Source: Candidatus Electrothrix sp. GW3-4
GTDB lineage: Bacteria > Desulfobacterota > Desulfobulbia > Desulfobulbales > Desulfobulbaceae
Direction: 5' to 3'
DNA length: 32,000 nt
Assembly (NCBI RefSeq): GCF_037902255.1
Contig: NZ_CP147990.1
Span: 1,020,001 to 1,052,000 of the forward strand
Below the pieces are notes generated by a model that worked only from the letters and a program-made list of their open reading frames with translations, ran no database searches and was not told the DNA's origin. Of the stretch, positions 1,463 through 22,695 are shown piece by piece. The position numbers and the translations under genes are program-made. The stretch's first letter is position 1. Every line of letters begins with the position of its first letter.

Positions 1463-3400
1463 ATGCAGCACGAGATGTACAGTAAAAGCAGTAAAGGAGC
1501 CCTTACCAATCCCTTTAGCAATACCCGGGTCGACAGCCCGTTTCAGCAGCATATTGATCTGGATGCGGTCCATCGTGATGCCTTTATCCGCATAACCAAC
1601 CTGATCGACGAGATCAGGGGGGATAAGAATCAGCAGAGCCGGGGTGCGGTGGTGCTGGGTGTGGCTGGCAACGGCAAGACCCATTTGATGATGCGGCTGG
1701 CCCGTCATACCCTGAAGACCAATCGCCTCTTTTTTATTCGCCAGCCCAATCATGAAGAGGCGGTGTTCTATCATATCTACAGCCGGATGCTGGAGTCCTT
1801 TATCGAGCCGATCCCGGACACCGAATACTCGCAGCTGGAGTATCTCCTGGGCCGTAGTTTTTCCAAGATTGTCATCAAGACCCTTCAGGGCAGGAAGACC
1901 CTGAACAAAAAGGATGAGCATATCCTGCACGGTCTGTCCCAGGGCCAGCTCAATATCTATACCGTGCTGGGCAAGGAGGGGTCAGAGACCAAGCGGCGGA
2001 ACTGGGATTATATCGAACGCCAGACCTTGCAATGGTGGCAGGAGAGTTACGGTTTCAGTGATTATGCCTGCAATATCATCACCGGCCTGATTCGTTTTTG
2101 TCGTTATTCTGATGCCAATAAAAAGGAGCTGGTTCGGCGCTGGCTGGCTGGTCAGCATCTCTTAGAGAGTGAGCTTCAGGCGGTCAGGCTGGATAATTGG
2201 GAGGCAGAGCTGAGCCGGGAAGACTTTGCCCTTCAGGCTATGGTGGTCTTTGGCCGGCTCTCGGTGGTCGATGAGCCCCTGATTATAGTTTTTGATCAGC
2301 TGGAAGGGCTCAAGTATAATCAGGGGCTGCTGATCCGTTTCGGTGAGGCGGTCAAGGAGTTGTTTACCCATGTGCCCAACTGCCTGATGCTCTTTAATCT
2401 CTTTCCTGATCGCTGGCGTTTTTTCCGGCAACTCTTTGATGCCTCGGTTACGGAACGGATGGGTCAGTACCAGGTCGCTCTGGAATTGCCGGAGAAAACA
2501 GTATTGGCAAAGATGCTGGCTCTGAAGCTGGCTGAGGTTGATCTGGATAGTGAGACCCTGTTCAAGCCGGATGAATTGGAGATCATCCTCAGTCATGGTT
2601 CCATCCGCTCTGTGCTTAACTGCGCAGCAGAGTATTATCGCTATAAGCTGGAAGGTATTCCTCTGCCCACCAATACCCTGAGTTTTGAGGCAAGGGTTGA
2701 TCGGACCTTGCAAGAGCTGCGGCAGGAAATTGCCGAGTTACGCCAGCATCTATGCCTGGAAAAGAAACCTGATGCCGTGCCGCTTAACCCTGTGTCCAGG
2801 GAGGTGGTCAGTTATATTGAGCAGAAGCAGGGGCAACTTGCAGCAGTGTATAGCAGGAAGCAGATTATTAGTGATACGGACGATCTGGGGAAACTGCGCC
2901 TGATCCTTGATGCCTTACAACCACTGTATGGTTTTCGTCTTGATTATCTACGGCTTGGGAGGCGGCGCCTACCCGAACATGTGGTTATTCAGCACCAACA
3001 GCAGGGGGGAAAGCATGTTGGGAGTAAAAAGGTGGCTGTGGCCTTTCTTCATACTGATGCGTACACTTTTGCTCCGAGGATTAAGAATTTCAACCAGCTG
3101 GTTGTCGAGCATAAGGACATTCGTTTTGCCCTATTTCGGGATATCCGGGAACCGGAGATAAAGAGCAGGGTGGGCAAGGGCGAGATCGAAAAACTCAACA
3201 CGACCGAGAATGGGCGATTTATTCTCATGGATCGGCCCCAACGCATCCATTTTGAGTTGGTTCATCAGATTATCTCGGATATCCAGAACCACGATCTCCA
3301 TACGGAACCAGATCAGGTCATGCCTTTACTGGTGGAGATGATCGGTAAAGAATTCTGGTTGTTTCGGGCTATGGGGGGGGATCATCATGAGGAGAACTGA
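1463..3400 (+). CDS. P-loop NTPase of unknown function (AAA+-like, DnaA/Hda-style Walker motifs)
   Basis: 645-aa ORF with an ATG start. Walker A is GVAGNGKTHL at about residues 66-75 (nt ~1658-1687). A Walker-B-like LIIVFDQLEGL lies at residues 273-283, about 200 residues downstream. The C-terminal ~300 aa match no domain I recognise, and there are no TM segments. Confidence 0.8.
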   Translation: MQHEMYSKSSKGALTNPFSNTRVDSPFQQHIDLDAVHRDAFIRITNLIDEIRGDKNQQSRGAVVLGVAGNGKTHLMMRLARHTLKTNRLFFIRQPNHEEAVFYHIYSRMLESFIEPIPDTEYSQLEYLLGRSFSKIVIKTLQGRKTLNKKDEHILHGLSQGQLNIYTVLGKEGSETKRRNWDYIERQTLQWWQESYGFSDYACNIITGLIRFCRYSDANKKELVRRWLAGQHLLESELQAVRLDNWEAELSREDFALQAMVVFGRLSVVDEPLIIVFDQLEGLKYNQGLLIRFGEAVKELFTHVPNCLMLFNLFPDRWRFFRQLFDASVTERMGQYQVALELPEKTVLAKMLALKLAEVDLDSETLFKPDELEIILSHGSIRSVLNCAAEYYRYKLEGIPLPTNTLSFEARVDRTLQELRQEIAELRQHLCLEKKPDAVPLNPVSREVVSYIEQKQGQLAAVYSRKQIISDTDDLGKLRLILDALQPLYGFRLDYLRLGRRRLPEHVVIQHQQQGGKHVGSKKVAVAFLHTDAYTFAPRIKNFNQLVVEHKDIRFALFRDIREPEIKSRVGKGEIEKLNTTENGRFILMDRPQRIHFELVHQIISDIQNHDLHTEPDQVMPLLVEMIGKEFWLFRAMGGDHHEEN

Positions 3401-3482
3401 ACGGATCTTTTGAACCCTTTCAGGGTAGTTGAGAGGCCCCTCTGAGAGAAGCAGAATCTATGGGGCGGAATATATCAGCCCG

Positions 3483-3509
3483 GAGGAATACGCCGAATAT
3501 GCCGAATAC
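3483..3509. repeat. Three tandem 9-bp units (gaggaatac / gccgaatat / gccgaatac), plus a further GAATA at 3468-3472 and an inverted TATTC at 3524-3528
   Basis: Read directly from the sequence. The repeats lie in the 145-bp gap upstream of the first URO-D-like gene and just upstream of its RBS (GGGGGAGGA, 3532-3540). Confidence 0.6.
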
Positions 3510-3545
3510 GCTGGCTGGTGCAATATTCATAGGGGGAGGAATGTG

Positions 3546-4604
3546 ATGATGGGTAAACGACAGGGCGCGATAATGACAGCAATGGAGCGTGTGCTCACGA
3601 CCTTGGGGTATCAGGAACCGGACCGGGTCCCTTTTTTTCTGCTCTTGACCATGCACGGGGCCAGAGAGTTGGGCCTGGGTATTCAGGAATATTTTGCCAA
3701 GGCCGAGTATGTGGTGGAAGGCCAGTTGCGCATGCGCCGGAAATATGGGCACGACTGTCTCAATCCTTTTTGTTACGCAGCCATGGAGATAGAGGCCTTT
3801 GGTGGAGAGGTTATCTGGTTTGAGGACGGCCCGCCCAATAGCGGTGAACCAATTATCAAAACGGCAACAGATATCTTTTCTCTGCAGGCCCCGGAGGTAC
3901 ACAGCAGTCCCTGTCTTAACAGGGTGTTGAATATCATTCACTCCCTGAAAGAACAGGCCAGGGATGAGGTGCCGATTATCGGTACGGTCATCTCGCCCTT
4001 TTCCCTGCCTGTCATGCAGATGGGCTTTTCTGCCTATATTGAGCTGATGTATGAGCAGCCAGAACTGTTTGACCGGCTCATGGAGGTGAACCAGGAGTTT
4101 TGCGTGAACTGGGCCAATGCCCAGATCCAGGCTGGCGCCACTGCCATCTGCTATTTTGATCCCCTGACCTCACCGACCATCACCGCCCCTGGCGTACATC
4201 TGGAAAAAGGCTTTGCCGTTGCCCGTCAAACCCTGGCCAGGATCCAATCACCAACAGCCTTTCATCTGGCCTCGGGCAGGACCCTGGCCGTGGTTGATGA
4301 TATTATTGCCACGGGTTCGGCAGCCCTTGGCGTGAGCACAACAGAAGATCTCGGAGAGGTGAAAGCCGCCTGTCAGGGCAGGATGGCGGTGTTGGGAAAT
4401 TTCAACGGCATTGAAATGCGTCGCTGGACCCCGCAACAGGCAGAGGACAAGGTTCGGGAGGCTGTGGCCAAGGCAGCTGCTGGTGGCGGCTTTATCCTCT
4501 CTGATAATCACGGTGAGATCCCCTGGCAGGTCAGTGAAGAGGTCTTGCTGGCTCTTGCCGAGGCTGTGCATACATGGGGGAGGTACCCGCTTGTTGATTG
4601 CTAG
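3546..4604 (+). CDS. Uroporphyrinogen-decarboxylase (URO-D) family protein, MtaA/CmuA-like methyltransferase, paralog 1
   Basis: The ORF-track entry 3429-4604 starts at a TTG. I prefer the ATG at 3546, which is 5 nt after GGAGGA and aligns with the N-terminus of paralog 2 (MTAMERVLTTLGYQEPDRVPF vs MTSMERVLTSLAHKEPDRVPF). URO-D-family hallmarks are present: AGATAICYFDPLTSP, VLGNFNG, GGGFILSDN. Confidence 0.85.
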   Translation: MMGKRQGAIMTAMERVLTTLGYQEPDRVPFFLLLTMHGARELGLGIQEYFAKAEYVVEGQLRMRRKYGHDCLNPFCYAAMEIEAFGGEVIWFEDGPPNSGEPIIKTATDIFSLQAPEVHSSPCLNRVLNIIHSLKEQARDEVPIIGTVISPFSLPVMQMGFSAYIELMYEQPELFDRLMEVNQEFCVNWANAQIQAGATAICYFDPLTSPTITAPGVHLEKGFAVARQTLARIQSPTAFHLASGRTLAVVDDIIATGSAALGVSTTEDLGEVKAACQGRMAVLGNFNGIEMRRWTPQQAEDKVREAVAKAAAGGGFILSDNHGEIPWQVSEEVLLALAEAVHTWGRYPLVDC

Positions 4605-4650
4605 TGTTGTGCTATCTGTTTGAAAAGTAAAAGTAAAAATTGTTGTTCGG

Positions 4651-4679
4651 TTGACAGGTGCAGTTTCTCCGTATACTAT
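4651..4679 (+). promoter_or_regulatory. Sigma70-like promoter: TTGACA (4651-4656), 17-nt spacer, TACTAT (4674-4679)
   Basis: Perfect -35 hexamer, 17-nt spacer and a TAnnnT -10. It lies between the stop of paralog 1 (4604) and the corrinoid protein gene (4821). Confidence 0.35.
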
Positions 4680-4744
4680 AGGGCTATATGGGAAAGAGAT
4701 TGAAGAGATAACATAAGGTAAAATAAAATAAACACTGGCAGCGT

Positions 4745-4770
4745 AAGGTGAAGCCCCCCACCTTTTTTTT
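4745..4770 (+). terminator. Weak hairpin (AAGGTG / CACCTT) followed by a run of eight T; terminator or attenuator inside the leader of the corrinoid protein gene
   Basis: The stem pairs 4745-4750 with 4759-4764 around an 8-nt C-rich loop, and the T run spans 4763-4770. A second 6-bp hairpin (CTGTCC / GGACGG) follows at about 4779-4800. Both lie downstream of the predicted promoter. Confidence 0.3.
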
Positions 4771-4820
4771 ACGTTTTGCTGTCCCGTTTTCAAAGGACGG
4801 TTTGTTGGAAGTATTGATTA

Positions 4821-5459
4821 ATGATATCGCAAAAAAAAGAAGTTCAGACCTTTGTCGCTAAGCTTTTAAGGACTGATCGATTAGGTGCAGAAGAGATATT
4901 TAACGCTGTGCAAGAGCAGGGCTCCATGCCCCAGACGGTTGATCAACTCATCCTGCCAGCCTTGGAGACCATAGGACAAGGATGGGAAAAGGGGACAGTC
5001 GCCCTGGCCCAGGTCTATATGAGTAGCAGGATTTGTGAAGAACTGATGATCCATGTTCCCCTGTCCACCGCTCTGCAACATCCTGGATATCCGCGTATGG
5101 CGATAGCTGTCCTTGACGACTACCATCTTTTGGGAAAGATAATCGTCTCTGCCTGTTTACGGGCCAGTGGCTATGCATTCCAGGACTATGGTCGAGTGAC
5201 TTCTCAAGAGTTGGCCTGTAAAATAAAAAATGATTCTATAGAGATTATTCTTGTCTCCGCACTCATGCTTCGCTCTGCCTTGCAGATTAAGGAGGTCAAA
5301 CGTTTGCTTGTAGAGGCGGGCTCGCCAACCCGGATTGTTGTTGGCGGGGCACCGTTTCGTTTTGACCCCCTGCTTTGGAAGGAGGTGGGGGCTGATGCTA
5401 TGGGCGCAAATGCCGCAGAGGCCCTCTCCGCTATCTCCTCCTGTATAAAAACAATGTAA
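4821..5459 (+). CDS. Corrinoid (cobalamin) binding protein, MtaC/MtbC/MtsB-like
   Basis: 212 aa. The N-terminal helical cap (LILPALETIGQGWEKGTVALAQVYMSS) is followed by a Rossmann-type B12-binding domain. That domain carries the base-off/His-on signature DYHLLG (DxHxxG, residues 100-105, nt 5118-5135) and later SALM...VVGGAPF. Confidence 0.85.
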   Translation: MISQKKEVQTFVAKLLRTDRLGAEEIFNAVQEQGSMPQTVDQLILPALETIGQGWEKGTVALAQVYMSSRICEELMIHVPLSTALQHPGYPRMAIAVLDDYHLLGKIIVSACLRASGYAFQDYGRVTSQELACKIKNDSIEIILVSALMLRSALQIKEVKRLLVEAGSPTRIVVGGAPFRFDPLLWKEVGADAMGANAAEALSAISSCIKTM

Positions 5460-5468
5460 GGACAGAGC

Positions 5469-6527
5469 ATGGTTGTTGGAAACAAAAAGTCCGCAATGAC
5501 TTCAATGGAGCGTGTCCTGACGTCCTTAGCTCATAAGGAACCGGACAGGGTTCCGTTCTCTCTTATGCTGACCGTACACGGAGCCAGAGAACTGGGCCTG
5601 AGTATCAAGGAGTATTTTTCCAAGGCTGAATATGTGGTGGAAGGGCAGCTACGGATGTTGAAAAAATATCGGCACGACTGCGTGAATCCCTTTTGTGCCG
5701 CAGCAATGGCCGTGGAAGCCTTTGGCGGTGAGGTCCTCTGGTTTGAGGATGGCTCTCCAAACAGCGGCGAACCGATTATCACCACGGAAACGGATATCCT
5801 CTCCCTGCAGGTTCCGGAAATAGAGAGCAGTCCTTCTCTTGTCAGGATGCTGAAGATTATTGAGATGCTCAAAGAAAAGGTGGGAGAGGAGGTCCCTATT
5901 ATGGGGGTCGTGGTTTCCCCCTTCTCCCTGCCAGTTATGCAGATGGGTTTTTCCTCTTATATCGAGCTGATGCATGAACGTCCCGCGCTCTTTAACCGGC
6001 TTATGCAGGTGAATCAGGAGTTTTGTATTGCCTGGGCCAATACCCAGATCCTGGCCGGAGCAACTGCTATCTGTTATTTTGATGCCTTGCTCTCACCCTC
6101 TATCACCGCAGGTGCCCATCTTGAGACGGGATTCAAAATAGCACAGGACACCTTGGCCCGGATCAACAGCCCTTCGGTCATCCACATGGCAACAGCTGCC
6201 ACCCTGCCTGTTGTCGAAGAGGTTATCGCTGCCGGAGCCTCGGTAATCGGAGTGGGTATCCTGGATGATTTAGCCAAGTTGAAGGCCACCTGTCAGGGCA
6301 GACTGACAATTTTGGGCAACCTGAACGGGATTGCAATGCGTCGTTGGACACCGCAACAGGTTGAGAAAAAAGTGAAAGAGGTTATTGCCCAGGCCGCACC
6401 CGGTGGCGGTTTTATTCTTGCCGACAACGGTGAGATCCCTTGGCAGGTCGGTGAAGAGGTATTGACAGCTCTTTCAGTTGCCGCGCATAAATGGGGACGT
6501 TATCCTGTCTGCTGCCAAATGGGCTAG
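5469..6527 (+). CDS. URO-D family protein, MtaA/CmuA-like methyltransferase, paralog 2
   Basis: 352 aa with an ATG start preceded by AAGGA. It aligns colinearly with paralog 1 and is roughly two-thirds identical by eye. Confidence 0.85.
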   Translation: MVVGNKKSAMTSMERVLTSLAHKEPDRVPFSLMLTVHGARELGLSIKEYFSKAEYVVEGQLRMLKKYRHDCVNPFCAAAMAVEAFGGEVLWFEDGSPNSGEPIITTETDILSLQVPEIESSPSLVRMLKIIEMLKEKVGEEVPIMGVVVSPFSLPVMQMGFSSYIELMHERPALFNRLMQVNQEFCIAWANTQILAGATAICYFDALLSPSITAGAHLETGFKIAQDTLARINSPSVIHMATAATLPVVEEVIAAGASVIGVGILDDLAKLKATCQGRLTILGNLNGIAMRRWTPQQVEKKVKEVIAQAAPGGGFILADNGEIPWQVGEEVLTALSVAAHKWGRYPVCCQMG

Positions 6528-8407
6528 GGGGAAGGGCATTGAAACCGAGGTGTTGCTTTATTGTCTGTAAAAATTTTTTTCCTGAAGTCCAGGCGGCTGT
6601 CCAGCAGCAGGGGCTTGAAGAAGTGGAGGTCCGGTCATTTCCTCCCCATTGCTGTTCCGCTCCGCTAACTTGGCCCGAACTTGTCGATACTGTCAGGCGT
6701 TCATGGGCGGACGCTGTTGTGATTTTAGGCAGCTATTGTTTGCATGAGCTGACTGCCCCACCAGAGGAATCCTCCCGATGTAGGATTTATCGAAAGGAGC
6801 AATGCCACCACCTGTTGTGCAGTCCAACCCTTGTTGATGCCGTGCAGCAGAACGGTACCTATCTTGTGACCCCAGGTTGGCTTCATTATTGGCGAACGCA
6901 TATCTCGACCTGGGGATTTGACAGACCAACAGCCATTGAATTTTTCGGGGAATCGTTGCAGAAATTGCTCCTACTTGATACGGGCACGGACCCGGAATCG
7001 GAACAACATCTTGCTGAATTCGGGGGTTTTCTTCAGCTCCCTACCGAAGAATTGCCCATTGGCCTGGAATTCCTTGGGCTTTCCCTGTCGCAAATCATCG
7101 CTCCCTATCAACAGCAGGAACTCATACGCCAAAAAGAAGAGGTTGAGCGCCAAGCTGCTGAATCGGCAATGACCTTGGATCTTATCCGAATGGTGACCAG
7201 GGTTAAGTCAAGATCAGAAGTCGTTTCCGCCATTACTGAGCTTTTCACCATGCTGTTTGATCCGAAGGAGATATATTTTATCCCAGTGAGCAAAGCAGCT
7301 GTGCAGTTTGAGCAGGCGCCCGGCTTAAGCGCTGGAGAAAGGCTTCAGGTGCAGCAGTTTGCAGCGGGGCAGGAAAGACATCTTTTGCTGAATAAAGAGC
7401 AGGGGAGTTTCCTGTTGCGTATAGGTCGAAGAAAGGGGGGCCTAGCGGTGCTCCTGATTTCTCAAGTTGCCTATCCACAATATATTCATCAGTATATCAA
7501 TACCGCTCTTGCTGTCTCGGAAGTTTGCGCCCTGTCCATCAAGCATGTGCAGGCCTTGCGGGAATTGGTTCGCACCTCCCATCTTGCCGGTAAGGCTGAG
7601 GTGGCCACCGAGGTGCTGCATAATGTGGGCAACACCCTGAACAGTATTTCGGTATCTTCGGAGCATATTCGGGAAACGGTCCAACAGAGCAGTAGTATCA
7701 GTTTGTCTGATATTGTCCAGTTGATACAAGAGCATGAGCATGATAGGGAGAGCTTTTGCCTTCATGATCCGCGAGGGAAGAAGCTTCCTGTTTATTTTGC
7801 TAAACTTGCAGAGAAACTTGCCGAAGAACGGGGGTTCTTGCTGGCCGAAACAACCCGTCAGCTTCATCATATCCGCCGTGTTGCTGAGATTATCCGGGCC
7901 CAGCAGGATACGGCAAAACGTATTAACTGTACGGAACAGCTTAACCTGACCGCCCTTTTGGAAGAAAGCCTGGAATTATTTCAGGATGCCCTGGATGCGC
8001 AACAGATTACCGTGGAACGACGCTATGATGTTCAGCAGACGATCTCTGGAGAACCGCATAAGATATTACAGGTCGTGAGCAATCTCATCCGAAATGCCGT
8101 GGATGCCTTTGATGGGGCATCGGTTGAGCAGAGGAAGATTTCTGTGCGCACATATCCCGTTGCCGATCAGGATGAGGTCGTTGTTGAGATAAGCGATAAC
8201 GGGAAAGGCATGCAAGGAAATATCTTACAGCAGGCCTTTACCTTTGGTTTTACCACCAAAAAAAGCGGACATGGTTTTGGCCTTCATAATGCAGCTAATC
8301 TGGCAGCGGAAATGGGAGGGCGTTTGACAGGGAAAAGTGCAGGACCGGAGCAGGGAGCGCAGTTCAGGATGCGACTTCCTGTAACAGCAACTGGGGGAAC
8401 AGGATGA
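6491..8407 (+). CDS. Soluble sensor histidine kinase: DUF1638-like N-terminal domain, coiled coil, GAF-like domain, LHNVGN-type H-box, HATPase_c
   Basis: 638-aa ORF. The ATG at 6491 overlaps the previous gene by 37 nt. An in-frame TTG at 6539, preceded by AGGGGGAAGGG, would avoid the overlap. The N-terminus (CCFIVCKNFFPEV..SFPPHCCSAPL..VVILGSYCLHEL..EQCHHLLCSP..GTYLVTPGWLHYW) follows the remembered DUF1638 layout. The H-box is EVATEVLHNVGNTLNS. The ATP lid is DNGKGM...GHGFGL. No TM helices. Confidence 0.8.
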   Translation: MGTLSCLLPNGLGGRALKPRCCFIVCKNFFPEVQAAVQQQGLEEVEVRSFPPHCCSAPLTWPELVDTVRRSWADAVVILGSYCLHELTAPPEESSRCRIYRKEQCHHLLCSPTLVDAVQQNGTYLVTPGWLHYWRTHISTWGFDRPTAIEFFGESLQKLLLLDTGTDPESEQHLAEFGGFLQLPTEELPIGLEFLGLSLSQIIAPYQQQELIRQKEEVERQAAESAMTLDLIRMVTRVKSRSEVVSAITELFTMLFDPKEIYFIPVSKAAVQFEQAPGLSAGERLQVQQFAAGQERHLLLNKEQGSFLLRIGRRKGGLAVLLISQVAYPQYIHQYINTALAVSEVCALSIKHVQALRELVRTSHLAGKAEVATEVLHNVGNTLNSISVSSEHIRETVQQSSSISLSDIVQLIQEHEHDRESFCLHDPRGKKLPVYFAKLAEKLAEERGFLLAETTRQLHHIRRVAEIIRAQQDTAKRINCTEQLNLTALLEESLELFQDALDAQQITVERRYDVQQTISGEPHKILQVVSNLIRNAVDAFDGASVEQRKISVRTYPVADQDEVVVEISDNGKGMQGNILQQAFTFGFTTKKSGHGFGLHNAANLAAEMGGRLTGKSAGPEQGAQFRMRLPVTATGGTG

Positions 8408-10194
8408 CAGCAATCGCACAAGGGGTTCGGCGGGTTTTGATTATTGACGATAACCCGGAGATTCATAACGATATAAAAAAAATTTTACAACCAACGACTG
8501 CGTCTGATGATTTTGACGCCCTGCTTTCGGATATTACCGGTAAGGCCGCTGCAAAGGCGCACCAGACGATGATCCTGGTGGATTCTGCCTTTCAGGGAGA
8601 TGAGGGGGTCAAGATGGTTCGGCAGGCGAGGATGGAAGACCGGCCCTATGCCCTTGCCTTTGTTGATATGCGGATCCCTCCTGGGCCTGATGGGTTGCAG
8701 ACGCTCAAGAAATTGCAAATGGAAGATGATCGGCTTCAATATATTATTATAACAGCATTTTCTGATTATTCCTGGCAGGATATCAGTGATGCGTTGGTCT
8801 CCAAAGATAATCTCCTGATTATAAAAAAACCTTTTGAATCCATAGAAATACGTCAGAGTGCCAGTGCTCTTCTTGAAAAATGGCATATTGCTATGGAACG
8901 GGAGCATATCCTTGCTGCCCTGGCCATGCAGCGTGATATGCTGGAAGATCAGGTGCGGGAGCGAACCGCTGAGCTGGATCGAAAAAATGTTCTGCTGGAA
9001 AAAGAGGTTGAGGAGCGAAAAAAAAACGAAGAAGAGATACGGCAGCATCGAAACATGCTGGAAGAAGAGGTGGCCAGGCGAAGTGCCCGGATTGTTGAGC
9101 AGAATAATTTTCTCCACACCGTGATCAATTCCCTGCCTCATCCCTTTATGGTGGTGAATACTGTTGATTATACAGTCGCTATTGCTAATAAGGCGGGCCG
9201 GGCTGGAGGCTCTGGCGTTCCCAGAGGGGAGAAATGTTACCAATGTCTACACGGGTTGCCTCATCCCTGTCACGAGATCGGTCTTCCCTGTCCCTTGCAG
9301 GAGGTCCTCTGGCATGATGAACCGGCATTGTTTGAGCAGAGCATCTCTGACCCTCAGGGAAATGAGCGCATTCTGGAGGTTTATACCTCTCCCGTGGCGT
9401 CTCAACAGGAGAGGGGTGAAAAGAAGCAGATCATAGAATATTGTATTGATATCACTCGTCGCAAGAAACTCGAGGCGAACTTTCTGAAAAATAGCAAGAT
9501 GGGATTGGTTGCCACCTTGGCTGGAGGTATTGCCCATGACTTTAATAATCTCCTGATGGCCATTATCGGCAATATTGAGCTTGCAGCCATGAATATACCG
9601 CCTGAGCATAATGCGTGTGGATTTCTCGATGATGCAACTGAGGCCTCTGATCAGGCAAAGGTGTTGACCCATAAATTTCTGCTGTTCTCAAACTTTGACC
9701 CACCTGCCCGTCAGGCTGTTCCTCTTGGTGAGCTGATCACCACCAGCTGTTTGGCGGTACTTGCTGGCTCGAATATTGTTCAAGAATTTCATTTCGCGCA
9801 GGATTTATGGATGGGGTATATTGATCCAAGCCAGTTGGATTTGGCCCTGCGTGAACTCTTTTGTAATGCCCTGGAAGCGATGGGAACAGAGGGGCTACTT
9901 ATCTTGACTGCTGAAAATATAATCCGTTCCGGGCAGGTGCATCCTGAAAAAACCAAAGGGAAATATGTCAGGATAACCCTCCGGGATCAAGGTGTTGGTA
10001 TAGACCATAAGGATCTTGTTAACGTCTTTGACCCCTACTTCTCAAGCAAAGTGCGAGGAAACGGCAAAGGCATGGGGCTGGGATTGACCATTGCCTCCTC
10101 AATCATCCATCAGCATCAGGGCTATATAGATATTGAGTCAATCCCAGGAAAAGGAACTACTGTATACATTGAACTTCCTGCGGAAACAGAGTGA
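8404..10194 (+). CDS. Response-regulator receiver, coiled coil, Cys-rich PAS-like domain and histidine kinase (REC-HK)
   Basis: 596 aa. Its ATG at 8404 overlaps the TGA of the upstream kinase (ATGA). The REC domain has RVLIIDDNPE, FVDMRIPPGPDG and IIKKPF. The PAS-like segment has EKCYQCLHGLPHPCHEIGLPCP. The H-box is GGIAHDFNNLL. The HATPase region has DQGVGI...GKGMGLGL. Confidence 0.85.
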   Translation: MTAIAQGVRRVLIIDDNPEIHNDIKKILQPTTASDDFDALLSDITGKAAAKAHQTMILVDSAFQGDEGVKMVRQARMEDRPYALAFVDMRIPPGPDGLQTLKKLQMEDDRLQYIIITAFSDYSWQDISDALVSKDNLLIIKKPFESIEIRQSASALLEKWHIAMEREHILAALAMQRDMLEDQVRERTAELDRKNVLLEKEVEERKKNEEEIRQHRNMLEEEVARRSARIVEQNNFLHTVINSLPHPFMVVNTVDYTVAIANKAGRAGGSGVPRGEKCYQCLHGLPHPCHEIGLPCPLQEVLWHDEPALFEQSISDPQGNERILEVYTSPVASQQERGEKKQIIEYCIDITRRKKLEANFLKNSKMGLVATLAGGIAHDFNNLLMAIIGNIELAAMNIPPEHNACGFLDDATEASDQAKVLTHKFLLFSNFDPPARQAVPLGELITTSCLAVLAGSNIVQEFHFAQDLWMGYIDPSQLDLALRELFCNALEAMGTEGLLILTAENIIRSGQVHPEKTKGKYVRITLRDQGVGIDHKDLVNVFDPYFSSKVRGNGKGMGLGLTIASSIIHQHQGYIDIESIPGKGTTVYIELPAETE

Positions 10195-10229: not shown

Positions 10230-12512
10230 TCAGGCCTCATTATCAAGCACCTCCCGGACAATCTTTGCCAGTTCCTTGGTGGATAAGGGCTTGATAAGAT
10301 ATTTTTTAATACCAAGCTCAAGGGCCTCTTGTTCGGAAAAGGCAGCTGTGTAGCCTGTGCAGAGGATAATAGGCAGATCCGGCCGCAGTTGCAGGACAGA
10401 GCGGGCAAGATCACTCCCGGTGAGTTTCGGCATGGTATGGTCTGTAATCAGCAGGTCAAAGGCGTTCGGATCTTGCTGGAATATTTCCAGCGCCTTGAGG
10501 CTTTGGGTCGCAATGGTCACCTTGTAACCCAGGCTGCTGAGCAAGGAGCGATTGATATGGGTGATATCCACCTCATCATCAACAAAGAGGATTCGTTCAC
10601 TCCCCTCGGGTAGCGGTGTGTGAGGGATTTCTTGGCGCTTTCCTTGGCGCTTTCCCCCTGTTTTCTTATGTTGGGTCGGCAGATAGACATGAAAGGCGGT
10701 TCCTTGCCCGGTAACGCTTTCAACCTCAATAAAGCCGTTGCAGTCTTCCACAATACCGTGAATAACGGCTAATCCTAAGCCTGTTCCTGCTCCCTGCTCC
10801 TTGGTTGTGAAATAGGGATCAAAAATACGGCTCATGGTGATTTTATCGATTCCCTGGCCGTTGTCCTGCACAGTCAGTTTTACACTAGATCCTGGTGGCA
10901 TGGGTCTATCAGCAACACGTTCAGGAGAGAGCGTTATCGGCTTCAGACTGATCTTTAAGGTGCCCTGCTTATTGCCGATGGCATGAAAACCGTTTGTGAA
11001 GAGATTCAAGATGATTTGATGGATATTGGTTCGATCAGCAAGGACAATGCCGCATTGCTCGTCTATATCCTCTTGTATGTCTATGGTTGTTGGCAAAGAG
11101 GATCGCATCATCTTGACAGCCTCTTTGACGGTCTGGTCGATTTCGAGCTCTTTTTTTTGCTGTTTCTTTTTTCTACTAAAGGTAAGGATCTGCTTAATAA
11201 GATCGGTTGCTCGATTGCCCGCAAGAACGATTTGGTTTAAATCGTTTTCAAGAGGACTGGCCGCTGGCAGAGAGAGTTTGATTATTTCTGTATATCCGAG
11301 GATTGCAGCCAGAATATTATTGAAGTCATGGGCAATGCCCCCTGCCAGGGTACCAATGGCTTCCATCTTTCGGGCCTGAAAAAGTTCTTCCTCCAGCTTT
11401 TTTTTATCTGTTATATCGCGGGCGATATAGACAAGGTACTGGAACTGCCCCTGTTCGTCCAGAACAGGGGCTGAGCAGATATGAAAGAAATTTTCCAGGA
11501 ATTTATGCTCAAGCGTGCTGCAATGTTGGTAGTCGTCAAGCCTGGAGTGTACTCCTGGGCAGCTCGGACAGATAGTCGCTCCTTGTTGAAACAGGCTGTA
11601 ACAGGTGGTGCCAATGATCTCTTCTGAGGTTGTCTGAAAGAATTCATATGTTGCCCGATTCGCCCGGATAATGCGCATCTCACTATCCTGAAGGGTGATA
11701 ATATCTGGAATGGCGTCAAAGGTGTTTTGCCATTCTTCTGTTTGGCGCCGTAATTGTTTTTCAATAGCTGCCCGTTTTTTCATTTGCCTGCTTGTTTGCA
11801 CATAAAAGAGCACCAGGCCTGTTATTCCTATCAGATAAATCAAAAGATGATACAGGGCACTTGTTTTGAATTGTTTATGAAAGAGCTCAATAATGCCGTC
11901 AATGGGAAAGGTTATACTGATTCCGCCGCGAATATCACCGACTTGATCGCCTTTTCGCATATGGCATTGGATGCAGGTCTCTTGCGTAATTGCTGGCATC
12001 ATGACCCGCATTAAGGTCTTATCGCCTTGTTTCATTACCACGGAGGCCTCTTTTTCGCCTTGGGTAAAGGAAAGGAGGGCTGCTTTCTCCCAGTCATCTG
12101 GTGTATTTTCTGGTCGAACCGCATCAAGACTGGTGATATGACCACCGATCCCATATATCTCCTGTTCAAGCTGATATGCCTGACGGGTCATATGTGCTGG
12201 ATTGATCAGCGTGAGTTTTTTTCCGCTTGGCGTGACAATATCTCTGTCCGTAAAACCAATCAAATAGGGATTTGGCTGATTTTTGTCATTCACCGGGGCG
12301 TAGATCCCGCCGTTATGGGCATTCCATAACTCGTAAATATAGTCTTTGTTGACAGCGGTCAGGCCTATCTTCTTGCCGATAAATTCTACACTTTGCCATT
12401 CATGTTTCACATACAGGCTGAGGGAACCGGTCAGAAGGAGTGACCAGGAGAGGACGGCTGCTGCGCACCAGAGACGAAGTTGTTTGATCCCGACACTTGT
12501 GCTATTCTGCAT
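10230..12512 (-). CDS. Hybrid sensor kinase: signal-anchor TM, periplasmic DUF3365 (Tll0287-like, CxxCH), TM, Cys-rich PAS, HisKA, HATPase_c, C-terminal REC
   Basis: 760 aa. The DUF3365 pattern is GGHITSLDAVRPENTPDDWE...ETCIQCHMRKGDQVGDIRGGISITFP, with a c-type heme motif CIQCH. The H-box is GGIAHDFNNIL. The REC domain has ILFVDDE...LLITDHTMP...LIKP. Confidence 0.85.
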   Translation of the reverse strand: MQNSTSVGIKQLRLWCAAAVLSWSLLLTGSLSLYVKHEWQSVEFIGKKIGLTAVNKDYIYELWNAHNGGIYAPVNDKNQPNPYLIGFTDRDIVTPSGKKLTLINPAHMTRQAYQLEQEIYGIGGHITSLDAVRPENTPDDWEKAALLSFTQGEKEASVVMKQGDKTLMRVMMPAITQETCIQCHMRKGDQVGDIRGGISITFPIDGIIELFHKQFKTSALYHLLIYLIGITGLVLFYVQTSRQMKKRAAIEKQLRRQTEEWQNTFDAIPDIITLQDSEMRIIRANRATYEFFQTTSEEIIGTTCYSLFQQGATICPSCPGVHSRLDDYQHCSTLEHKFLENFFHICSAPVLDEQGQFQYLVYIARDITDKKKLEEELFQARKMEAIGTLAGGIAHDFNNILAAILGYTEIIKLSLPAASPLENDLNQIVLAGNRATDLIKQILTFSRKKKQQKKELEIDQTVKEAVKMMRSSLPTTIDIQEDIDEQCGIVLADRTNIHQIILNLFTNGFHAIGNKQGTLKISLKPITLSPERVADRPMPPGSSVKLTVQDNGQGIDKITMSRIFDPYFTTKEQGAGTGLGLAVIHGIVEDCNGFIEVESVTGQGTAFHVYLPTQHKKTGGKRQGKRQEIPHTPLPEGSERILFVDDEVDITHINRSLLSSLGYKVTIATQSLKALEIFQQDPNAFDLLITDHTMPKLTGSDLARSVLQLRPDLPIILCTGYTAAFSEQEALELGIKKYLIKPLSTKELAKIVREVLDNEA

Positions 12513-19839: not shown

Positions 19840-20379
19840 TTACCACCTTCTTGAATATTCCGGTGCACAGTCCAGGCAGAGCTTCTTCTCCTCATAGAGG
19901 CGAATCTTGCTCTCTACCGCTGGTTCTCCGCATTGTTCACAGGCCACGGTTTTAAAAATTTTGGCCTTAACAGGCAGGTCGTAGGCGGGTTCTGTGAAGG
20001 AAAAGATCTCCTCGTCTGGCAGGCTCAGGATCTCCTGCTGATAGGTCTTGCGGTCACCGGTTTCCTTGTTCAAGAGATGGGTGAGGCGAATACGGAGTTT
20101 TTTGTTCTGCTTACGGAGAAAGAAACTAAAGGCCTGTTTGCCTCGGTCTCTGTAAAGGAGATTACCCTTTCCAAGGGTGCAGCTGAGCAGGGCTTGGACC
20201 GCGTCCAGGCTACAGGAGTCATTTTCTGTCACACAGACCAACTCTTCGTCTGCGGCAGAGGTTACGCCCAACTGCTTCCGAGCCGCCATTGTCACTCGAA
20301 AACCTATTGCCAGGCCCGGACATTGATGGCCATGAAACGCTACACATCTCTCCCAGTCGCTTTTCCATGTTTTGTTCAT
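19840..20379 (-). CDS. FmdE-domain protein with a C-terminal zinc ribbon
   Basis: 179 aa. It has FHGHQCPGLAIGFRV (the FmdE-family signature) and a C-terminal CEQCGEP...CLDC. Confidence 0.75.
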   Translation of the reverse strand: MNKTWKSDWERCVAFHGHQCPGLAIGFRVTMAARKQLGVTSAADEELVCVTENDSCSLDAVQALLSCTLGKGNLLYRDRGKQAFSFFLRKQNKKLRIRLTHLLNKETGDRKTYQQEILSLPDEEIFSFTEPAYDLPVKAKIFKTVACEQCGEPAVESKIRLYEEKKLCLDCAPEYSRRW

Positions 20380-20483: not shown

Positions 20484-21140
20484 TCAACTGATATCTTCCA
20501 GCAGGCCGAGTTTGGCTGCATAACGAACCAGATCGACCGTACTGTGGAGGTCCAGCTTACTGAGGATGTTGGCCCGATGATTAGTCACGGTTTTCGCGCT
20601 GATGCAGAGTTTGTCCGCGATATCCGCTACCGCAGTCCCCTGAGCCAATAGCCGGAAAATTTCCTGCTCTCGGGCGGTGAGGTTACCATAGGTTGAATCG
20701 GAGAGATCCGAGGATTCAGCAGCCTCAAGAAGCCGTCCAACGATCTCCCGGGAAAGGGCTGAATCCAGATAGTACTCATCCAGCAGGGCCGCCTCAAGCG
20801 CATTCTGTAAACAGTCGGAAACCGATTCCTTGACAATATAACCGATTGCCCCGGCCCGTAATGCGCCCATGATATAATCAATCTTTGAATGCATACTGAC
20901 AATGATAATGCGGGTCTCTGGCACTGCTCCCTTTAAGAGCCTGGTCAGCTGAATCCCGCTCTTGTCCGGGAGGGAGAGGTCAACCACCGCAATATCCGGT
21001 TTGATGGTGCGGACCACCTCTTCCCCATGCCGGGCATCAGCACCTTCACCGGCAACCTCAAAGTCAGAATATTTTTCAATAAGCTGTCGGAGACCGGCCC
21101 GAAAGGTATCGTGGTCGTCAATAAGGACTATTTTTTTCAT
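20484..21140 (-). CDS. NarL/LuxR-family response regulator (REC + HTH_LuxR)
   Basis: 218 aa. It has KIVLIDDHDTFRAGL, AVVDLSLPDKSG, and a C-terminal LTAREQEIFRLLAQGTAVADIADKLCISAKTVTNHRANILSKL. Confidence 0.9.
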   Translation of the reverse strand: MKKIVLIDDHDTFRAGLRQLIEKYSDFEVAGEGADARHGEEVVRTIKPDIAVVDLSLPDKSGIQLTRLLKGAVPETRIIIVSMHSKIDYIMGALRAGAIGYIVKESVSDCLQNALEAALLDEYYLDSALSREIVGRLLEAAESSDLSDSTYGNLTAREQEIFRLLAQGTAVADIADKLCISAKTVTNHRANILSKLDLHSTVDLVRYAAKLGLLEDIS

Positions 21141-21159
21141 GGCTCGCTCTTGCTGGTGT

Positions 21160-22695
21160 TCAGGTTAATCTGACCTCGGCCTTTTCTGGGACTGGGCCGG
21201 GGAATTCAATGATAATCTTGGTCCCTTGCTCGGGGGCAGAACGGATCTTAAAGGTGCCGTGCATCATCCGCACCCGTTCTTCCATGCCGAGTAAACCGAA
21301 GCGTTTGTTTTCCAGGGCCTTGCGAACCCCCTGTTCAGGATCAAAGCCGCAGCCGTTATCTTCTACACGGAGAATGATATTCGGATGAGAGGCTATCAGG
21401 CGTATTTCGACCTTTGTTGCCTGGGCATGTCGTTCAATATTATTCAAGCTCTCCTGAACCAGGCGGTATACATTGATCGCATCGTCAAAGGGGAAGTCCA
21501 AGGTGTCGACACCAGCCTTGGAGAACTGGATAAAGATGCCGGTCTGTTTGCTGAAATCTCGACAATAGTCAGCTATAGCGCTGGCAAGCCCTATCTGCTC
21601 AAGCCCGGGGGGACGGAGATTATAGGAGAGCTCGCGCACGGTCTTGATACAGTGATTCAGGAGCTTGGCCCAGTCAGCTCTTTCCTCCTCACTGGGAGGG
21701 CTTCCCTTGGCGGCGTCCTGGAGCAGGCTTTCGCCGGTAATTTTCAGGGAGGAAAGATTTTGCGCCACATTATCATGGAGGTAAAGGGAGATCTGCTGGC
21801 GCTCGGTTTCCTGCACGGTCAAGAGCTTCTGCGATAAATTATGCACCTGCTCCTCCGCCTTTCTGAGTTCTGCATTGGCATGTAGCAGTTCCTCAGTCCT
21901 TTCCTGGACCTTGAGGTCGAATTCATTATGATAACCGGCCAGTTGATCAGCCATCTTGCCGAATTCTTTGGCAAGAAACTCAAACTCATCACCTGAATTG
22001 ATATGCACCTGATGGCTGAGATTCCCCCTGCCGATTTGCCGGGTCCCTTCCTGTAGGATTTTCATGGGGCCCAGCACAGAGCGCATCATGAGGAAGACAA
22101 CAATGAGGGTCAGGAAGATAACTGCGAGCCCGGTTAGAGCGACAACTGCCAGGGTATGACGATATTGTTGCCCGACAAAGGCCTCGGTTCTGTCGATCTG
22201 GCGCAGATGGAGATGGAGATGTTTGTCAATGGCGTTTTCCAGATGCCCCAGCTCCTCCCGGATTGCCTCGGAGATCTTTGCAAGTTCCTCCTTGGCAGTG
22301 GGCCAACTCTGCTCGGATTTTTCCAAAAGGTATTGGGAGAGCGTTGTCGCAAAAATAACATGGTGGAGCATCTTATGGGCAGCCTGCTCATCTGGCGTTA
22401 AGGACTTATGCTTATGCTTGGCATGGGTCTCTATCATCACACTGAGCTGATTCGCCTTTTCCCTGATCAGGCTCCGGTCAAACTGTTTTTCCCGAATCCC
22501 TGTTTCCAGAGAGAGGAGCAGTTTTTTGAGATCCAGCATAGCAGAGGCATTTATTGTTGCCTCCTGTTGCAACTGGGTAAAATGGCTATGAACGGTTGAA
22601 AAGGTCCAGACGCACCACCCTCCTTGAATGAGGATGACGAGCAGCAGGGGAAGAAAGTAGAGAAGGAATCTCTTGCGGAGGCCGATTTTTAACAT
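21160..22695 (-). CDS. Sensor histidine kinase, NarX-like (2 TM, periplasmic helical domain, HAMP, HisKA_3, HATPase_c)
   Basis: 511 aa. The H-box is LHDNVAQNLSSLKI (HisKA_3). The HATPase region has VEDNGCGF...FGLLGMEERV. It ends 19 nt upstream of the response-regulator gene. Confidence 0.85.
   Translation of the reverse strand: MLKIGLRKRFLLYFLPLLLVILIQGGWCVWTFSTVHSHFTQLQQEATINASAMLDLKKLLLSLETGIREKQFDRSLIREKANQLSVMIETHAKHKHKSLTPDEQAAHKMLHHVIFATTLSQYLLEKSEQSWPTAKEELAKISEAIREELGHLENAIDKHLHLHLRQIDRTEAFVGQQYRHTLAVVALTGLAVIFLTLIVVFLMMRSVLGPMKILQEGTRQIGRGNLSHQVHINSGDEFEFLAKEFGKMADQLAGYHNEFDLKVQERTEELLHANAELRKAEEQVHNLSQKLLTVQETERQQISLYLHDNVAQNLSSLKITGESLLQDAAKGSPPSEEERADWAKLLNHCIKTVRELSYNLRPPGLEQIGLASAIADYCRDFSKQTGIFIQFSKAGVDTLDFPFDDAINVYRLVQESLNNIERHAQATKVEIRLIASHPNIILRVEDNGCGFDPEQGVRKALENKRFGLLGMEERVRMMHGTFKIRSAPEQGTKIIIEFPGPVPEKAEVRLT

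Follow-up and report, generated by a model that had tools for sequence, protein, structure and literature searches.

What does a corrinoid protein do when its gene lies between two genes of the uroporphyrinogen decarboxylase (URO-D) family and directly in front of two histidine kinase genes? This question is raised by a 32-kb stretch of DNA from Candidatus Electrothrix sp. GW3-4, a cable bacterium of the Desulfobulbaceae, which as a whole is called here the window. At ~3.4-10.2 kb the window carries a cassette of five genes (3546-10194), all on the + strand, in the order URO-D1, corrinoid protein (CP), URO-D2, histidine kinase 1 (HK1) and histidine kinase 2 (HK2). An initial annotation of this DNA had proposed a self-contained, signal-controlled methyl shuttle in a background resembling a sulfate reducer. 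The host, being a cable bacterium, is not a classical sulfate reducer; of the shuttle proposal, the tie between the methyl-transfer genes and a sensor has held, while its logic looks inverted, in that the genes resemble a sensory input and not a catabolic operon with its regulator. The analysis is based throughout on sequence, predicted structure and gene context. We favour, with a probability of roughly 55%, the reading that the CP and the URO-D-family protein are the signal-input device of a cytoplasmic signalling protein rather than a kinase-regulated catabolic pathway, because the head of that signalling protein is conserved, its outputs are interchangeable and no metabolic genes are co-conserved with it.

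The gene content first described for the cassette was confirmed by Pfam. URO-D1 (3546..4604, Pfam URO-D E=6e-54) probably starts at its second ATG at 3549; the database copy P0001 has 351 aa, and a GGAGG ribosome-binding site precedes the start. A gap of 216 nt separates it from the CP of 212 aa (4821..5459) with its DYHLLG motif, and URO-D2 (5469..6527, Pfam URO-D E=2.5e-52) occupies the slot between CP and sensor that is canonical for the module. The two URO-D proteins, described as about two-thirds identical, share 68% identity over 349 aa.

Homologous loci were collected by scanning one genome per GTDB species, which gave at least 534 loci with the URO-D clade. The best-scoring 80 were examined within 10 kb on each side of the URO-D gene, and all their open reading frames (ORFs) were searched with the window proteins to obtain the counts given below. 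The URO-D gene was present in 80/80 loci; the CP gene was adjacent to it in 78/80 and lay directly upstream in 72. A DUF1638/GAF protein directly followed URO-D in all 73 loci having at least 700 nt of downstream sequence. Since this core order recurs in 73/73 informative loci, the arrangement is not a chance juxtaposition, and the conserved unit, as judged from gene order, is CP, one URO-D and a (DUF1638)-GAF-headed protein. The called gene boundaries within it, from an 11-nt overlap to an 11-nt gap, speak for translational coupling. In a reciprocal check, 4/4 independently chosen head proteins (an HWE kinase, a GGDEF protein, a HisKA kinase and one with no output domain) had CP and URO-D immediately upstream, the genes in one of these loci being frameshifted on a long-read contig. 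Co-conservation of the methyltransferase and CP genes with the downstream sensor protein, proposed from the window alone, thus extends to every informative locus. The five-gene order is kept only in part: CP-URO-D-head recurs across phyla, the second URO-D was seen only in the window and in loci L007 and L008, and HK2 only in Desulfobulbales.

The carriers among the best 80 loci belong to Desulfobacterota, Chloroflexota, Riflebacteria, Gammaproteobacteria (Parabeggiatoa, Thiomargarita, Methylobacter), Nitrospirota, Acidobacteriota, Verrucomicrobiota, Planctomycetota, Leptospirales, Bacillota, Actinomycetes, Ignavibacteriales and SAR324, and include an isolate, Desulfonema magnum 4be13 (L065). 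All-against-all clustering of the ORFs of the 80 loci revealed no further co-conserved gene family and no metabolic gene; the remaining multi-locus clusters consist either of antisense ORFs within the three module genes or of generic receivers and kinases. In the immediate upstream and downstream flanks, REC, kinase and PAS proteins alone are enriched. In Riflebacteria (L003/L005:5517-8925) a 364-aa B12-binding protein between two SpoIIE-type phosphatases precedes the module, and this group may be a second B12-linked signalling unit. A hemerythrin gene directly follows the sensor gene in two metagenomic loci (L089:6924-7358 and L090:6849-7253); as a conserved neighbour hinting at O2 sensing it was dropped, being found in 2/4 extra loci and in 0/80 genome loci.

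The third gene of the unit is represented in the window by HK1. Its longest ORF begins at ATG 6491. Translation probably starts at TTG 6539, since this fits the 622-aa NCBI protein P0121 (100% identical, Candidatus Electrothrix sp. GW3-4); it lies 11 nt past the URO-D2 stop codon (TAG 6525-6527), behind a GGGGGAAGGG ribosome-binding site, so that the sensor kinase follows without a real gap, as had been noted. HK1 consists of a DUF1638-type alpha/beta domain (6539..7105; Pfam DUF1638 E=5e-10, 40.0 bits vs a gathering cut-off of 27), a predicted GAF-fold domain reached via a long helix (7202..7570) and a kinase core (7571..8407) with a dimerisation and histidine phosphotransfer helix, the H-box LHNVGN containing His361 (nt 7619-7621), and HATPase_c (E=5e-20). 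In the AlphaFold2 (AF2) model of residues 1-344, counted from the TTG (pLDDT 91.6), the alpha/beta domain is joined by a helix of ~45 residues to the GAF-like domain. The GAF region has no Pfam GAF match, and the fold was assigned from this model and from Foldseek, which returned 5w10, 3e98, 3p01, 4y2f and the REC-GAF dual-sensor kinase 6oaq (probability 1.00, E 1e-4 to 4e-3), the matches including Lcd1, PA5279, KdpD, phosphodiesterase (PDE) and phytochrome GAF domains. The GAF core has near-invariant D, L, F and Y positions and no conserved Cys or His. The DUF1638 head carries four cysteines, C10, C38, C67 and C89, placed by the model at the C-terminal ends of strands beta1-beta4 and conserved at 75-97% in one alignment and at >=90% in two others; they are candidate ligands of a metal or Fe-S site. 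Only 2/4 of these Cys are kept by classical stand-alone DUF1638 proteins, which are ~23% identical to the module head.

What is attached to this head varies. The third-gene partner has DUF1638 and GAF in 54 loci and GAF without DUF1638 in 22, which leaves GAF as the only part of the third gene common to every module variant. Among 69 locus proteins the outputs comprised 31 HATPase_c, 16 HisKA, 12 GGDEF, 7 REC and 6 PAS domains, and 22/69 proteins were GAF-only, with a Cys-rich tail or PAS domain. An exhaustive phmmer search of the HK1 head against 1.84 billion cluster representatives gave 1,156 clusters at E<=1e-3, of which 498 reached E<=1e-30; in each case the head matched the N-terminus of a protein of 359-1462 aa. 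Of 64 wider head homologues, 63 had DUF1638, 50 HATPase_c, 40 HisKA, 5 HisKA_2/HWE, 5 GGDEF, 1 HD_5 (HD-GYP-type) and 1 STAS, so that orthologous heads are found on kinase cores of either the HisKA or the HisKA_2/HWE type. Output enzymes that change behind a constant head are a classical mark of signal-input domains, and we take the third gene to encode a sensory head because its conserved N-terminal part is joined to interchangeable outputs. The idea that the ATPase domain of the histidine kinase serves as an ATP-driven corrinoid activase was dropped, as GGDEF, STAS and GAF-only variants exist.

Two further forms of the third gene were observed. GAF-only variants end, in some cases after a PAS domain, in a conserved tail of ~55 aa, LSGLLPIC(S/M)xCKKIRDDKGYWxQ(I/V)ExYIxxHSxAxFSHGICxxCxxKxYP, with the pattern CxxC...H...H..CxxC and no Pfam match (L020:11163-11885, L021:11098-11781, L045:11053-11784, L060:11040-11756, L062:11107-11751 and ~15 more loci). 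The same tail forms the C-termini of L027:11042-12175 and L033:11042-12181, and by its Cys/His pattern it looks like an unnamed signalling output element of the zinc-ribbon type. In split versions the four-Cys DUF1638 head stands alone (~200 aa) and the GAF-output protein is encoded by a gene of its own downstream (L016:2264-2953 with the next ORF, P0363, P0373, P0375).

The CP itself consists of a four-helix cap and a Rossmann B12-binding domain (Pfam B12-binding_2 E=7e-10, B12-binding E=1e-12, both above the cut-offs). Its DYHLLG motif, an instance of DxHxxG, spans aa 100-105 (nt 5118-5135), and His102 is the predicted lower cobalt ligand. Among 75 family members the motifs D.H..G, S.LML.SAL and VGGAP show a conservation of at least 90%, and with this full His-on cobalamin-binding signature the CP is, on motif evidence, a bona fide cobalamin carrier. 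Its score of 60.5 bits in the curated TIGR02370 model (cut-off 215 bits) places the family in a separate clade of corrinoid proteins. A weak NCBIfam match to CarH (E=2e-8) was also obtained. The light signature of CarH-like proteins is GxxW followed ten residues on by E-H (W131, E141, H142 in TtCarH; PMC11796333). This Wx9EH signature does not occur in the CP, which has GQGW with V-Y at +10/+11, and [V/I]-Y replaces the E-H pair across the family; a CarH-type photoreceptor was for this reason dropped as an identity for the CP.

The URO-D proteins were placed among known families by NCBIfam scores and motif tests. Their best NCBIfam models are MtaA and CmuA, with 95-104 bits for the two proteins and 99-104 bits for URO-D1, vs cut-offs of 235 (TIGR01463) and 244 (PRK06252). 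With the hemE model TIGR01464 (cut-off 303 bits) URO-D1 scored 60.4 and URO-D2 63.1 bits. The position of the catalytic Asp of HemE (F-S-D motif, human Asp86) is occupied by Y77 in URO-D1 and by Ala in URO-D2, the clade consensus being F-F-Y-A; with this Asp lost, the clade, by its motifs, is not HemE, in agreement with the initial annotation. Nor is it a zinc-dependent enzyme of the MtaA type: in a profile alignment the MtaA zinc motif H-I-C (4ay7) aligns with H-L-A of the clade (H240-L-A242) and with H-M-A of URO-D2, i.e. the His is invariant and the Cys is gone. The likeness to MtsA, suggested earlier, does not extend to this motif, H-L/M-A standing in place of H-x-C. The URO-D TIM-barrel fold is predicted for URO-D1 by AF2 (pLDDT 92.7); the best match in the PDB is Methanosarcina mazei MtaA (4ay7, TM 0.84/0.88), several HemE structures follow at TM ~0.82, and identity is ~20% to both MtaA and HemE. 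Because of the sub-cut-off scores, the motif states and this low identity, URO-D1 and URO-D2 are assigned to a separate clade of the UroD superfamily. This clade is large, with 3,882 matches at E<=1e-10 among 8,000 candidates scored, and conserved to an unusual degree. The superfamily holds corrinoid methyltransferases of several kinds, among them CoM methyltransferases and the O-demethylases OdmB/VdmB (PMC10418091); no OdmB/VdmB-type solved structure or NCBIfam model was among the URO-D1/2 matches, and no OdmB/VdmB reference sequences were compared. Names given to the cassette proteins in databases are either unspecific or mistaken ('uroporphyrinogen decarboxylase', 'MtbA', 'ATP-binding protein').

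The presence of two URO-D genes around the CP had suggested two sister paralogs that catalyse two half-reactions, an idea which the comparison did not support. URO-D genes flanking the CP on both sides were found only in the window, in L007 (E. marina) and in L008, a Desulfobulbaceae metagenome-assembled genome (MAG), with a single URO-D in the other 78 loci; in Desulfobulbus sp. US4 both paralogs were among the protein matches (P0015, P0032). The order is URO-D, CP, kinase in E. aarhusensis, E. gigas and E. laxa, and the canonical CP, URO-D, kinase in Electrothrix sp. YB6 and another MAG. In a neighbour-joining tree, built without bootstrap support, both copies fall within the Electrothrix branch; URO-D1 groups with the single, upstream-only URO-D of L009-L011 and URO-D2 with the canonical-slot gene of YB6. 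URO-D1 keeps all clade-invariant residues (H240, D320-N-H322-G-E324). The URO-D2 clade is altered at near-invariant sites: H322, which belongs to D-N-H-G-E and corresponds in the alignment to the His in G-H-G of HemE, is deleted, H-L-A-S-G has become H-M-A-T-A (S243-G244 to T-A), and Y77 is replaced by A. URO-D2 is the more divergent copy, the family elsewhere being nearer to URO-D1 (62% median identity) than to URO-D2 (57%). As judged from tree and residues, the pair is a duplication of the Electrothrix lineage and not a pair of substrate:corrinoid methyltransferase (MT1) and methylcorrinoid:acceptor methyltransferase (MT2). Since the duplication is local and URO-D2 has lost near-invariant features, a division of labour between MT1 and MT2 is not a property of the system; at most it arose recently in a few cable bacteria.

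Across phyla the median identity falls from 62% for URO-D through 46% for CP and 35% for DUF1638 to 26% for GAF. This gradient fits a constrained catalytic core feeding lineage-adapted transducers, and a URO-D this strongly conserved would more likely act on a common metabolite than on a niche substrate. From the gene content, folds, motif states and cross-phylum co-conservation that we observed, we infer the following scheme of methyl transfer, protein contacts and phosphorelay. URO-D, having the MtaA-like fold and no zinc-thiol site, would move a methyl group reversibly between a small molecule, probably a common one, and the cobalamin of CP. The CP would thereby partition between Co(I)/Co(II) and CH3-Co(III) forms. 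The (DUF1638)-GAF head of HK1 would bind CP, or a CP-URO-D complex, depending on the methylation or oxidation state, and oxidised Co(II) may in addition be re-reduced or discriminated by the DUF1638 domain with its four Cys; this domain is a plausible reader or resetter of CP because DUF1638 has already been tied to the state of protein-bound cobalamin. Binding of CP to the head would set autophosphorylation of HK1 at His361, and HK1 would pass the phosphate to Asp88 in the REC domain of HK2, which would add a second cue via its Cys-rich PAS domain and signal onward to a response regulator. In other lineages the CP/URO-D/GAF head would drive GGDEF, HD-GYP, STAS or other outputs.

Several points weigh against the input-device reading. 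No reductive activase lies nearby (10 kb on each side), and a Co(I) cycle would need one elsewhere or DUF1638 as its substitute. DUF1638 cannot be the essential reader, because 22 loci lack it. Module members beyond the best-scoring 80 of at least 534 loci could have other contexts, and operon membership alone is compatible with a kinase that merely regulates a two-protein enzyme system. Finally, the examined loci conserve no DNA-binding response regulator that would define the output.

As to novelty, UroD/MtaA proteins, corrinoid proteins of the methyltransferase type, DUF1638, GAF domains and two-component kinases are all known; what we found no description of is a CP-methyltransferase couple hard-wired to a dedicated sensor head. 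The literature searched on DUF1638/PF07796, on corrinoid-linked kinases and diguanylate cyclases and on cobalamin in Electrothrix contained no account of such a module, and to this extent the early impression of an undescribed system was right. That it constitutes a new class of bacterial receptor, in which a cobalamin methyl-transfer couple turns a metabolite or redox cue into a B12 state read by the DUF1638-GAF head, is put forward tentatively, at somewhat less than even chances. If true, B12 chemistry would be used for chemosensing or redox sensing, beyond catalysis, riboswitches and light-sensing, and bacterial signalling would gain a new input type, with the carried methyl group or the cobalt oxidation state as the message. 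A role would be found for two uncharacterised families, the conserved URO-D clade mis-annotated as 'uroporphyrinogen decarboxylase' or 'MtbA' and the DUF1638 subfamily, and the reading would account for at least 534 genome loci (>500 species, more than a dozen phyla) and ~1,150 protein clusters at 50% identity. The cue would be of importance to cable bacteria, large sulfur bacteria, sulfate reducers, Anaerolineae and many other organisms of sediment and groundwater. There is also a risk for annotation, as the module genes could be miscounted in metagenomes as markers of methylotrophy or heme synthesis.

In its architecture the module may be compared with the H-NOX/HnoK systems, whose stand-alone cofactor protein shares its operon with either a histidine kinase or a diguanylate cyclase. 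Both have a small cofactor-binding protein directly upstream of a soluble kinase or GGDEF protein and outputs that differ among species; in the module, however, the cofactor is cobalamin and not heme, URO-D is an obligatory third partner, and the receiver has its own DUF1638-GAF head. CarH/AerR and the predicted B12 photoreceptors likewise employ a B12-binding cap and Rossmann domain for signalling and not for catalysis, whereas the module CP lacks the Wx9EH adenosylcobalamin/light signature, is a separate protein and is accompanied by an obligatory enzyme of the methyltransferase fold. With MtaA/MtbA/MtsA and MtaC/MtbC the module shares the TIM-barrel fold, the best NCBIfam models and an adjoining gene for a cap-and-Rossmann DxHxxG CP; it differs in the scores, identity and zinc motif given above, in having neither MT1 nor activase and in its partner gene, which encodes a signalling protein. 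The only functional data on DUF1638 come from the marine alphaproteobacterium Phaeobacter inhibens, where the gene adjoins that of the B12-binding subunit of a split methionine synthase and is required for methionine synthesis (PMC5764234); DUF1638 co-occurs with a RamA-like activase across Alphaproteobacteria (PMC5764234), and the protein is predicted to act in reductive recharging of cobalamin (PMC12478193). In this bacterium as in the module, DUF1638 is encoded beside a B12-binding cap-and-domain protein. In P. inhibens it stands alone, with a RamA-like activase, and serves a metabolic enzyme, while in the module a divergent subfamily (~23% identity, two extra conserved Cys) is fused to GAF and signalling outputs.

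Among the rivals, one keeps the architecture of the input device and changes the cue, which would be the cobalt redox state, O2 or corrinoid availability. The head would then recognise oxidised CP (Co(II)/aquo-Co(III)) or apo-CP, and URO-D would reset or protect the cofactor by methylation. A metal or Fe-S site with redox activity is suggested by the four conserved Cys at the DUF1638 strand ends, genetic evidence connects DUF1638 with B12 reactivation in the split methionine synthase (PMC5764234, PMC12478193), and most carriers live as anaerobes or in gradients (cable bacteria, Parabeggiatoa, Thiomargarita, Desulfobacterota, Anaerolineae). The Cys-rich PAS of HK2 and the heme-c type domain of the convergent kinase described below also suggest a redox-sensing neighbourhood. 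We nevertheless hold this variant to be unlikely: URO-D is the most conserved part of the module and never missing, which makes catalysis central and not housekeeping, DUF1638 is absent from 22 loci, its stand-alone classical relatives keep 2/4 Cys, and hemerythrin or other O2-sensor neighbours are as sporadic as noted above.

Less probable still is a minimal metabolic methyl shuttle, in which URO-D proteins act as MT1 and MT2, or as a bifunctional MtsA-like enzyme, with CP, and the kinases control expression or activity. Members of the URO-D superfamily do catalyse corrinoid methyl transfer (MtaA, MtbA, MtsA, OdmB, VdmB; PMC10418091), and two paralogs flank CP in the window. A Pfam scan of essentially all large window ORFs found no MtaB/MttB-type MT1, pterin-binding MT2 or DUF4445/RamA/RACE activase in the 32 kb, as first reported, the remaining large ORFs being ordinary housekeeping and additional two-component genes; likewise no DUF4445/RamA, pterin-binding protein or canonical MT1 recurs in the 80 loci. 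The initial annotation had regarded a canonical MT1 and activase just outside the cassette in all homologous loci as fatal to its proposal; neither this nor any other of the outcomes by which it said its claim would fail was found. What was found is an MttB operon in only 2/80 loci (L033, L068), a point for the shuttle that we considered and dropped as a catabolic link, its proteins being also distant from those of the module (42-52 bits). In these two Desulfobacterota MAGs genes for TetR, a URO-D with a thioredoxin-like C-terminus, CobW, an MttB-family methyltransferase and a CP lie directly downstream of the module (L033:12301-17415, similarly L068).

Sensor kinases next to genes for corrinoid and URO-D-type methyltransferases have a precedent in Methanosarcina, and this too favours the shuttle: MsmS, RdmS and MA4377, some with a cofactor-binding GAF domain, adjoin the corrinoid-methyltransferase fusion genes mtsD/F/H. 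They act, however, with Msr transcription factors (HTH and DUF1724) on catabolic mts genes, and neither a conserved CP-URO-D-head operon nor output swapping is seen there; DUF1638 in the Msr regulators, which would have made the module part of a known regulatory theme, was considered and dropped, as the literature gives DUF1724. The Type 1 mlp clusters of Kountz and Balskus (PMC10418091) resemble the module in being widespread combinations of an MtaA-like URO-D and a corrinoid protein with no folate methyltransferase. They differ in having two or three anciently diverged Mlp lineages and Ram/RACE, in occurring mainly in Firmicutes and in lying beside genes of sulfur and selenium metabolism, and the text of that paper has no sensors or two-component systems, 'kinase' referring only to metabolic kinases in a figure legend (PMC10418091). 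Identity of the module with a Type 1 mlp cluster was dropped, given the absence of Ram/RACE and of an Mlp2 + Mlp3 pair, the recent origin of the two window paralogs with their 68% identity, the single URO-D as the rule and the other context.

Against the shuttle stands the restriction of paired URO-D genes to the window and 2/80 loci, with URO-D2 lacking invariant residues. Nor do the 80 loci have in common a conserved gene for an activase, a transporter, an MT1, a folate enzyme or a DNA-binding regulator. GGDEF, HD-GYP and STAS outputs cannot be operon-specific regulators of transcription, the zinc HxC motif for thiol methylation of the MtsA/MtaA type is missing, and cross-phylum conservation this high is unusual for niche catabolic enzymes. 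We therefore consider a shuttle quite improbable.

Light responses are reported for some carrier types, namely Beggiatoa relatives and multicellular magnetotactic bacteria, and a cobalamin light sensor was also weighed, in which light would cleave the Co-C bond of CP, the head would sense the photoproduct and URO-D would re-methylate in the dark. The CP shares its cap and Rossmann architecture with CarH and matches it weakly, and B12-binding domains coupled to kinases or diguanylate cyclases are predicted photoreceptors (PMC11796333). With the E-H pair replaced by [V/I]-Y family-wide, many carriers coming from dark anoxic habitats (groundwater, Smithella, Aminicenantes) and the conserved GAF and DUF1638 domains left unexplained, we give light sensing hardly any credence. 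Equally remote is cofactor delivery, in which URO-D and CP would supply GAF with its ligand, a tetrapyrrole or corrinoid that they process or chaperone, the corrinoid-loaded GAF being the real sensor: GAF is the one universal partner, the phytochrome GAF domains matched by HK1 bind tetrapyrroles, as do the GAF domain of Methanosarcina MsmS and the URO-D fold, yet CP retains every residue for stable His-on cobalamin binding, as befits a carrier and not a transient chaperone, the GAF core has no conserved Cys or His, and the HemE catalytic Asp is missing in the URO-D clade.

Returning to the input device, its onward signalling in the window would proceed through HK2 (8404..10194), which comprises REC (Asp88), a coiled coil, PAS, HisKA (His378) and HATPase_c, and which corresponds to the REC-PAS-kinase of the initial annotation. 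The ATGA overlap of HK1 and HK2 at 8404-8407 was verified, and by this overlap HK2 is translationally coupled to HK1. The REC pattern DD...D88...T...K is intact and conserved in orthologues, which directly follow HK1 only in Desulfobulbales loci (L009-L013, L017, L019, L039, L061). The PAS domain contains the cluster KCYQC...PCHE...LPCPL (window 9229-9300, aa 276-299), of which 3/4 Cys are kept in six other Desulfobulbales loci, suggesting a metal or Fe-S cofactor. From its domains and position HK2 is likely a phospho-acceptor for HK1 and a second integrator. Convergent to it, on the - strand (10230..12512), lies a hybrid kinase with a Tll0287-like domain containing the heme-c attachment motif CIQCH (CxxCH at aa 180), PAS, HisKA, HATPase and REC; it is a conserved neighbour of the module in loci from cable bacteria, and a minus-strand kinase takes the same position in L009-L012, L039 and L061. 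The HK1-HK2 pair together with the convergent heme-c type kinase is conserved only in Desulfobulbales, and membership of the latter in the relay is uncertain.

Further features of the window concern the expression and surroundings of the cassette. The 216-nt gap between URO-D1 and CP was considered as a site for a riboswitch, which was dropped, as no Rfam match to a riboswitch or other RNA was found anywhere in the window, this gap included. A consensus scan showed in the gap a sigma-70-like promoter match, TTGACA-17-TACTAT (4651..4679, + strand, 10/12 positions); on weak evidence it may be an internal promoter for CP-URO-D2-HK1-HK2, the region having 9 such sites vs 6.3 expected, so that this match alone is not significant. 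Directly upstream of the cassette, a STAND-like NTPase of 645 aa is encoded at 1463..3400 (+ strand), with weak AAA_16 and nSTAND5 matches below cut-off. Its orthologues lie upstream of the module only in L007, L008, L010, L011 and L013, and it is probably outside the core module, its synteny being limited to Electrothrix. These orthologues are ~150 aa longer at the N-terminus, and the window copy may be truncated or mis-started. Farther downstream (19840-20379, - strand) an FmdE domain is fused to a DksA/TraR C4 zinc finger, and a NarL-type two-component pair adjoins at 20484-22695.

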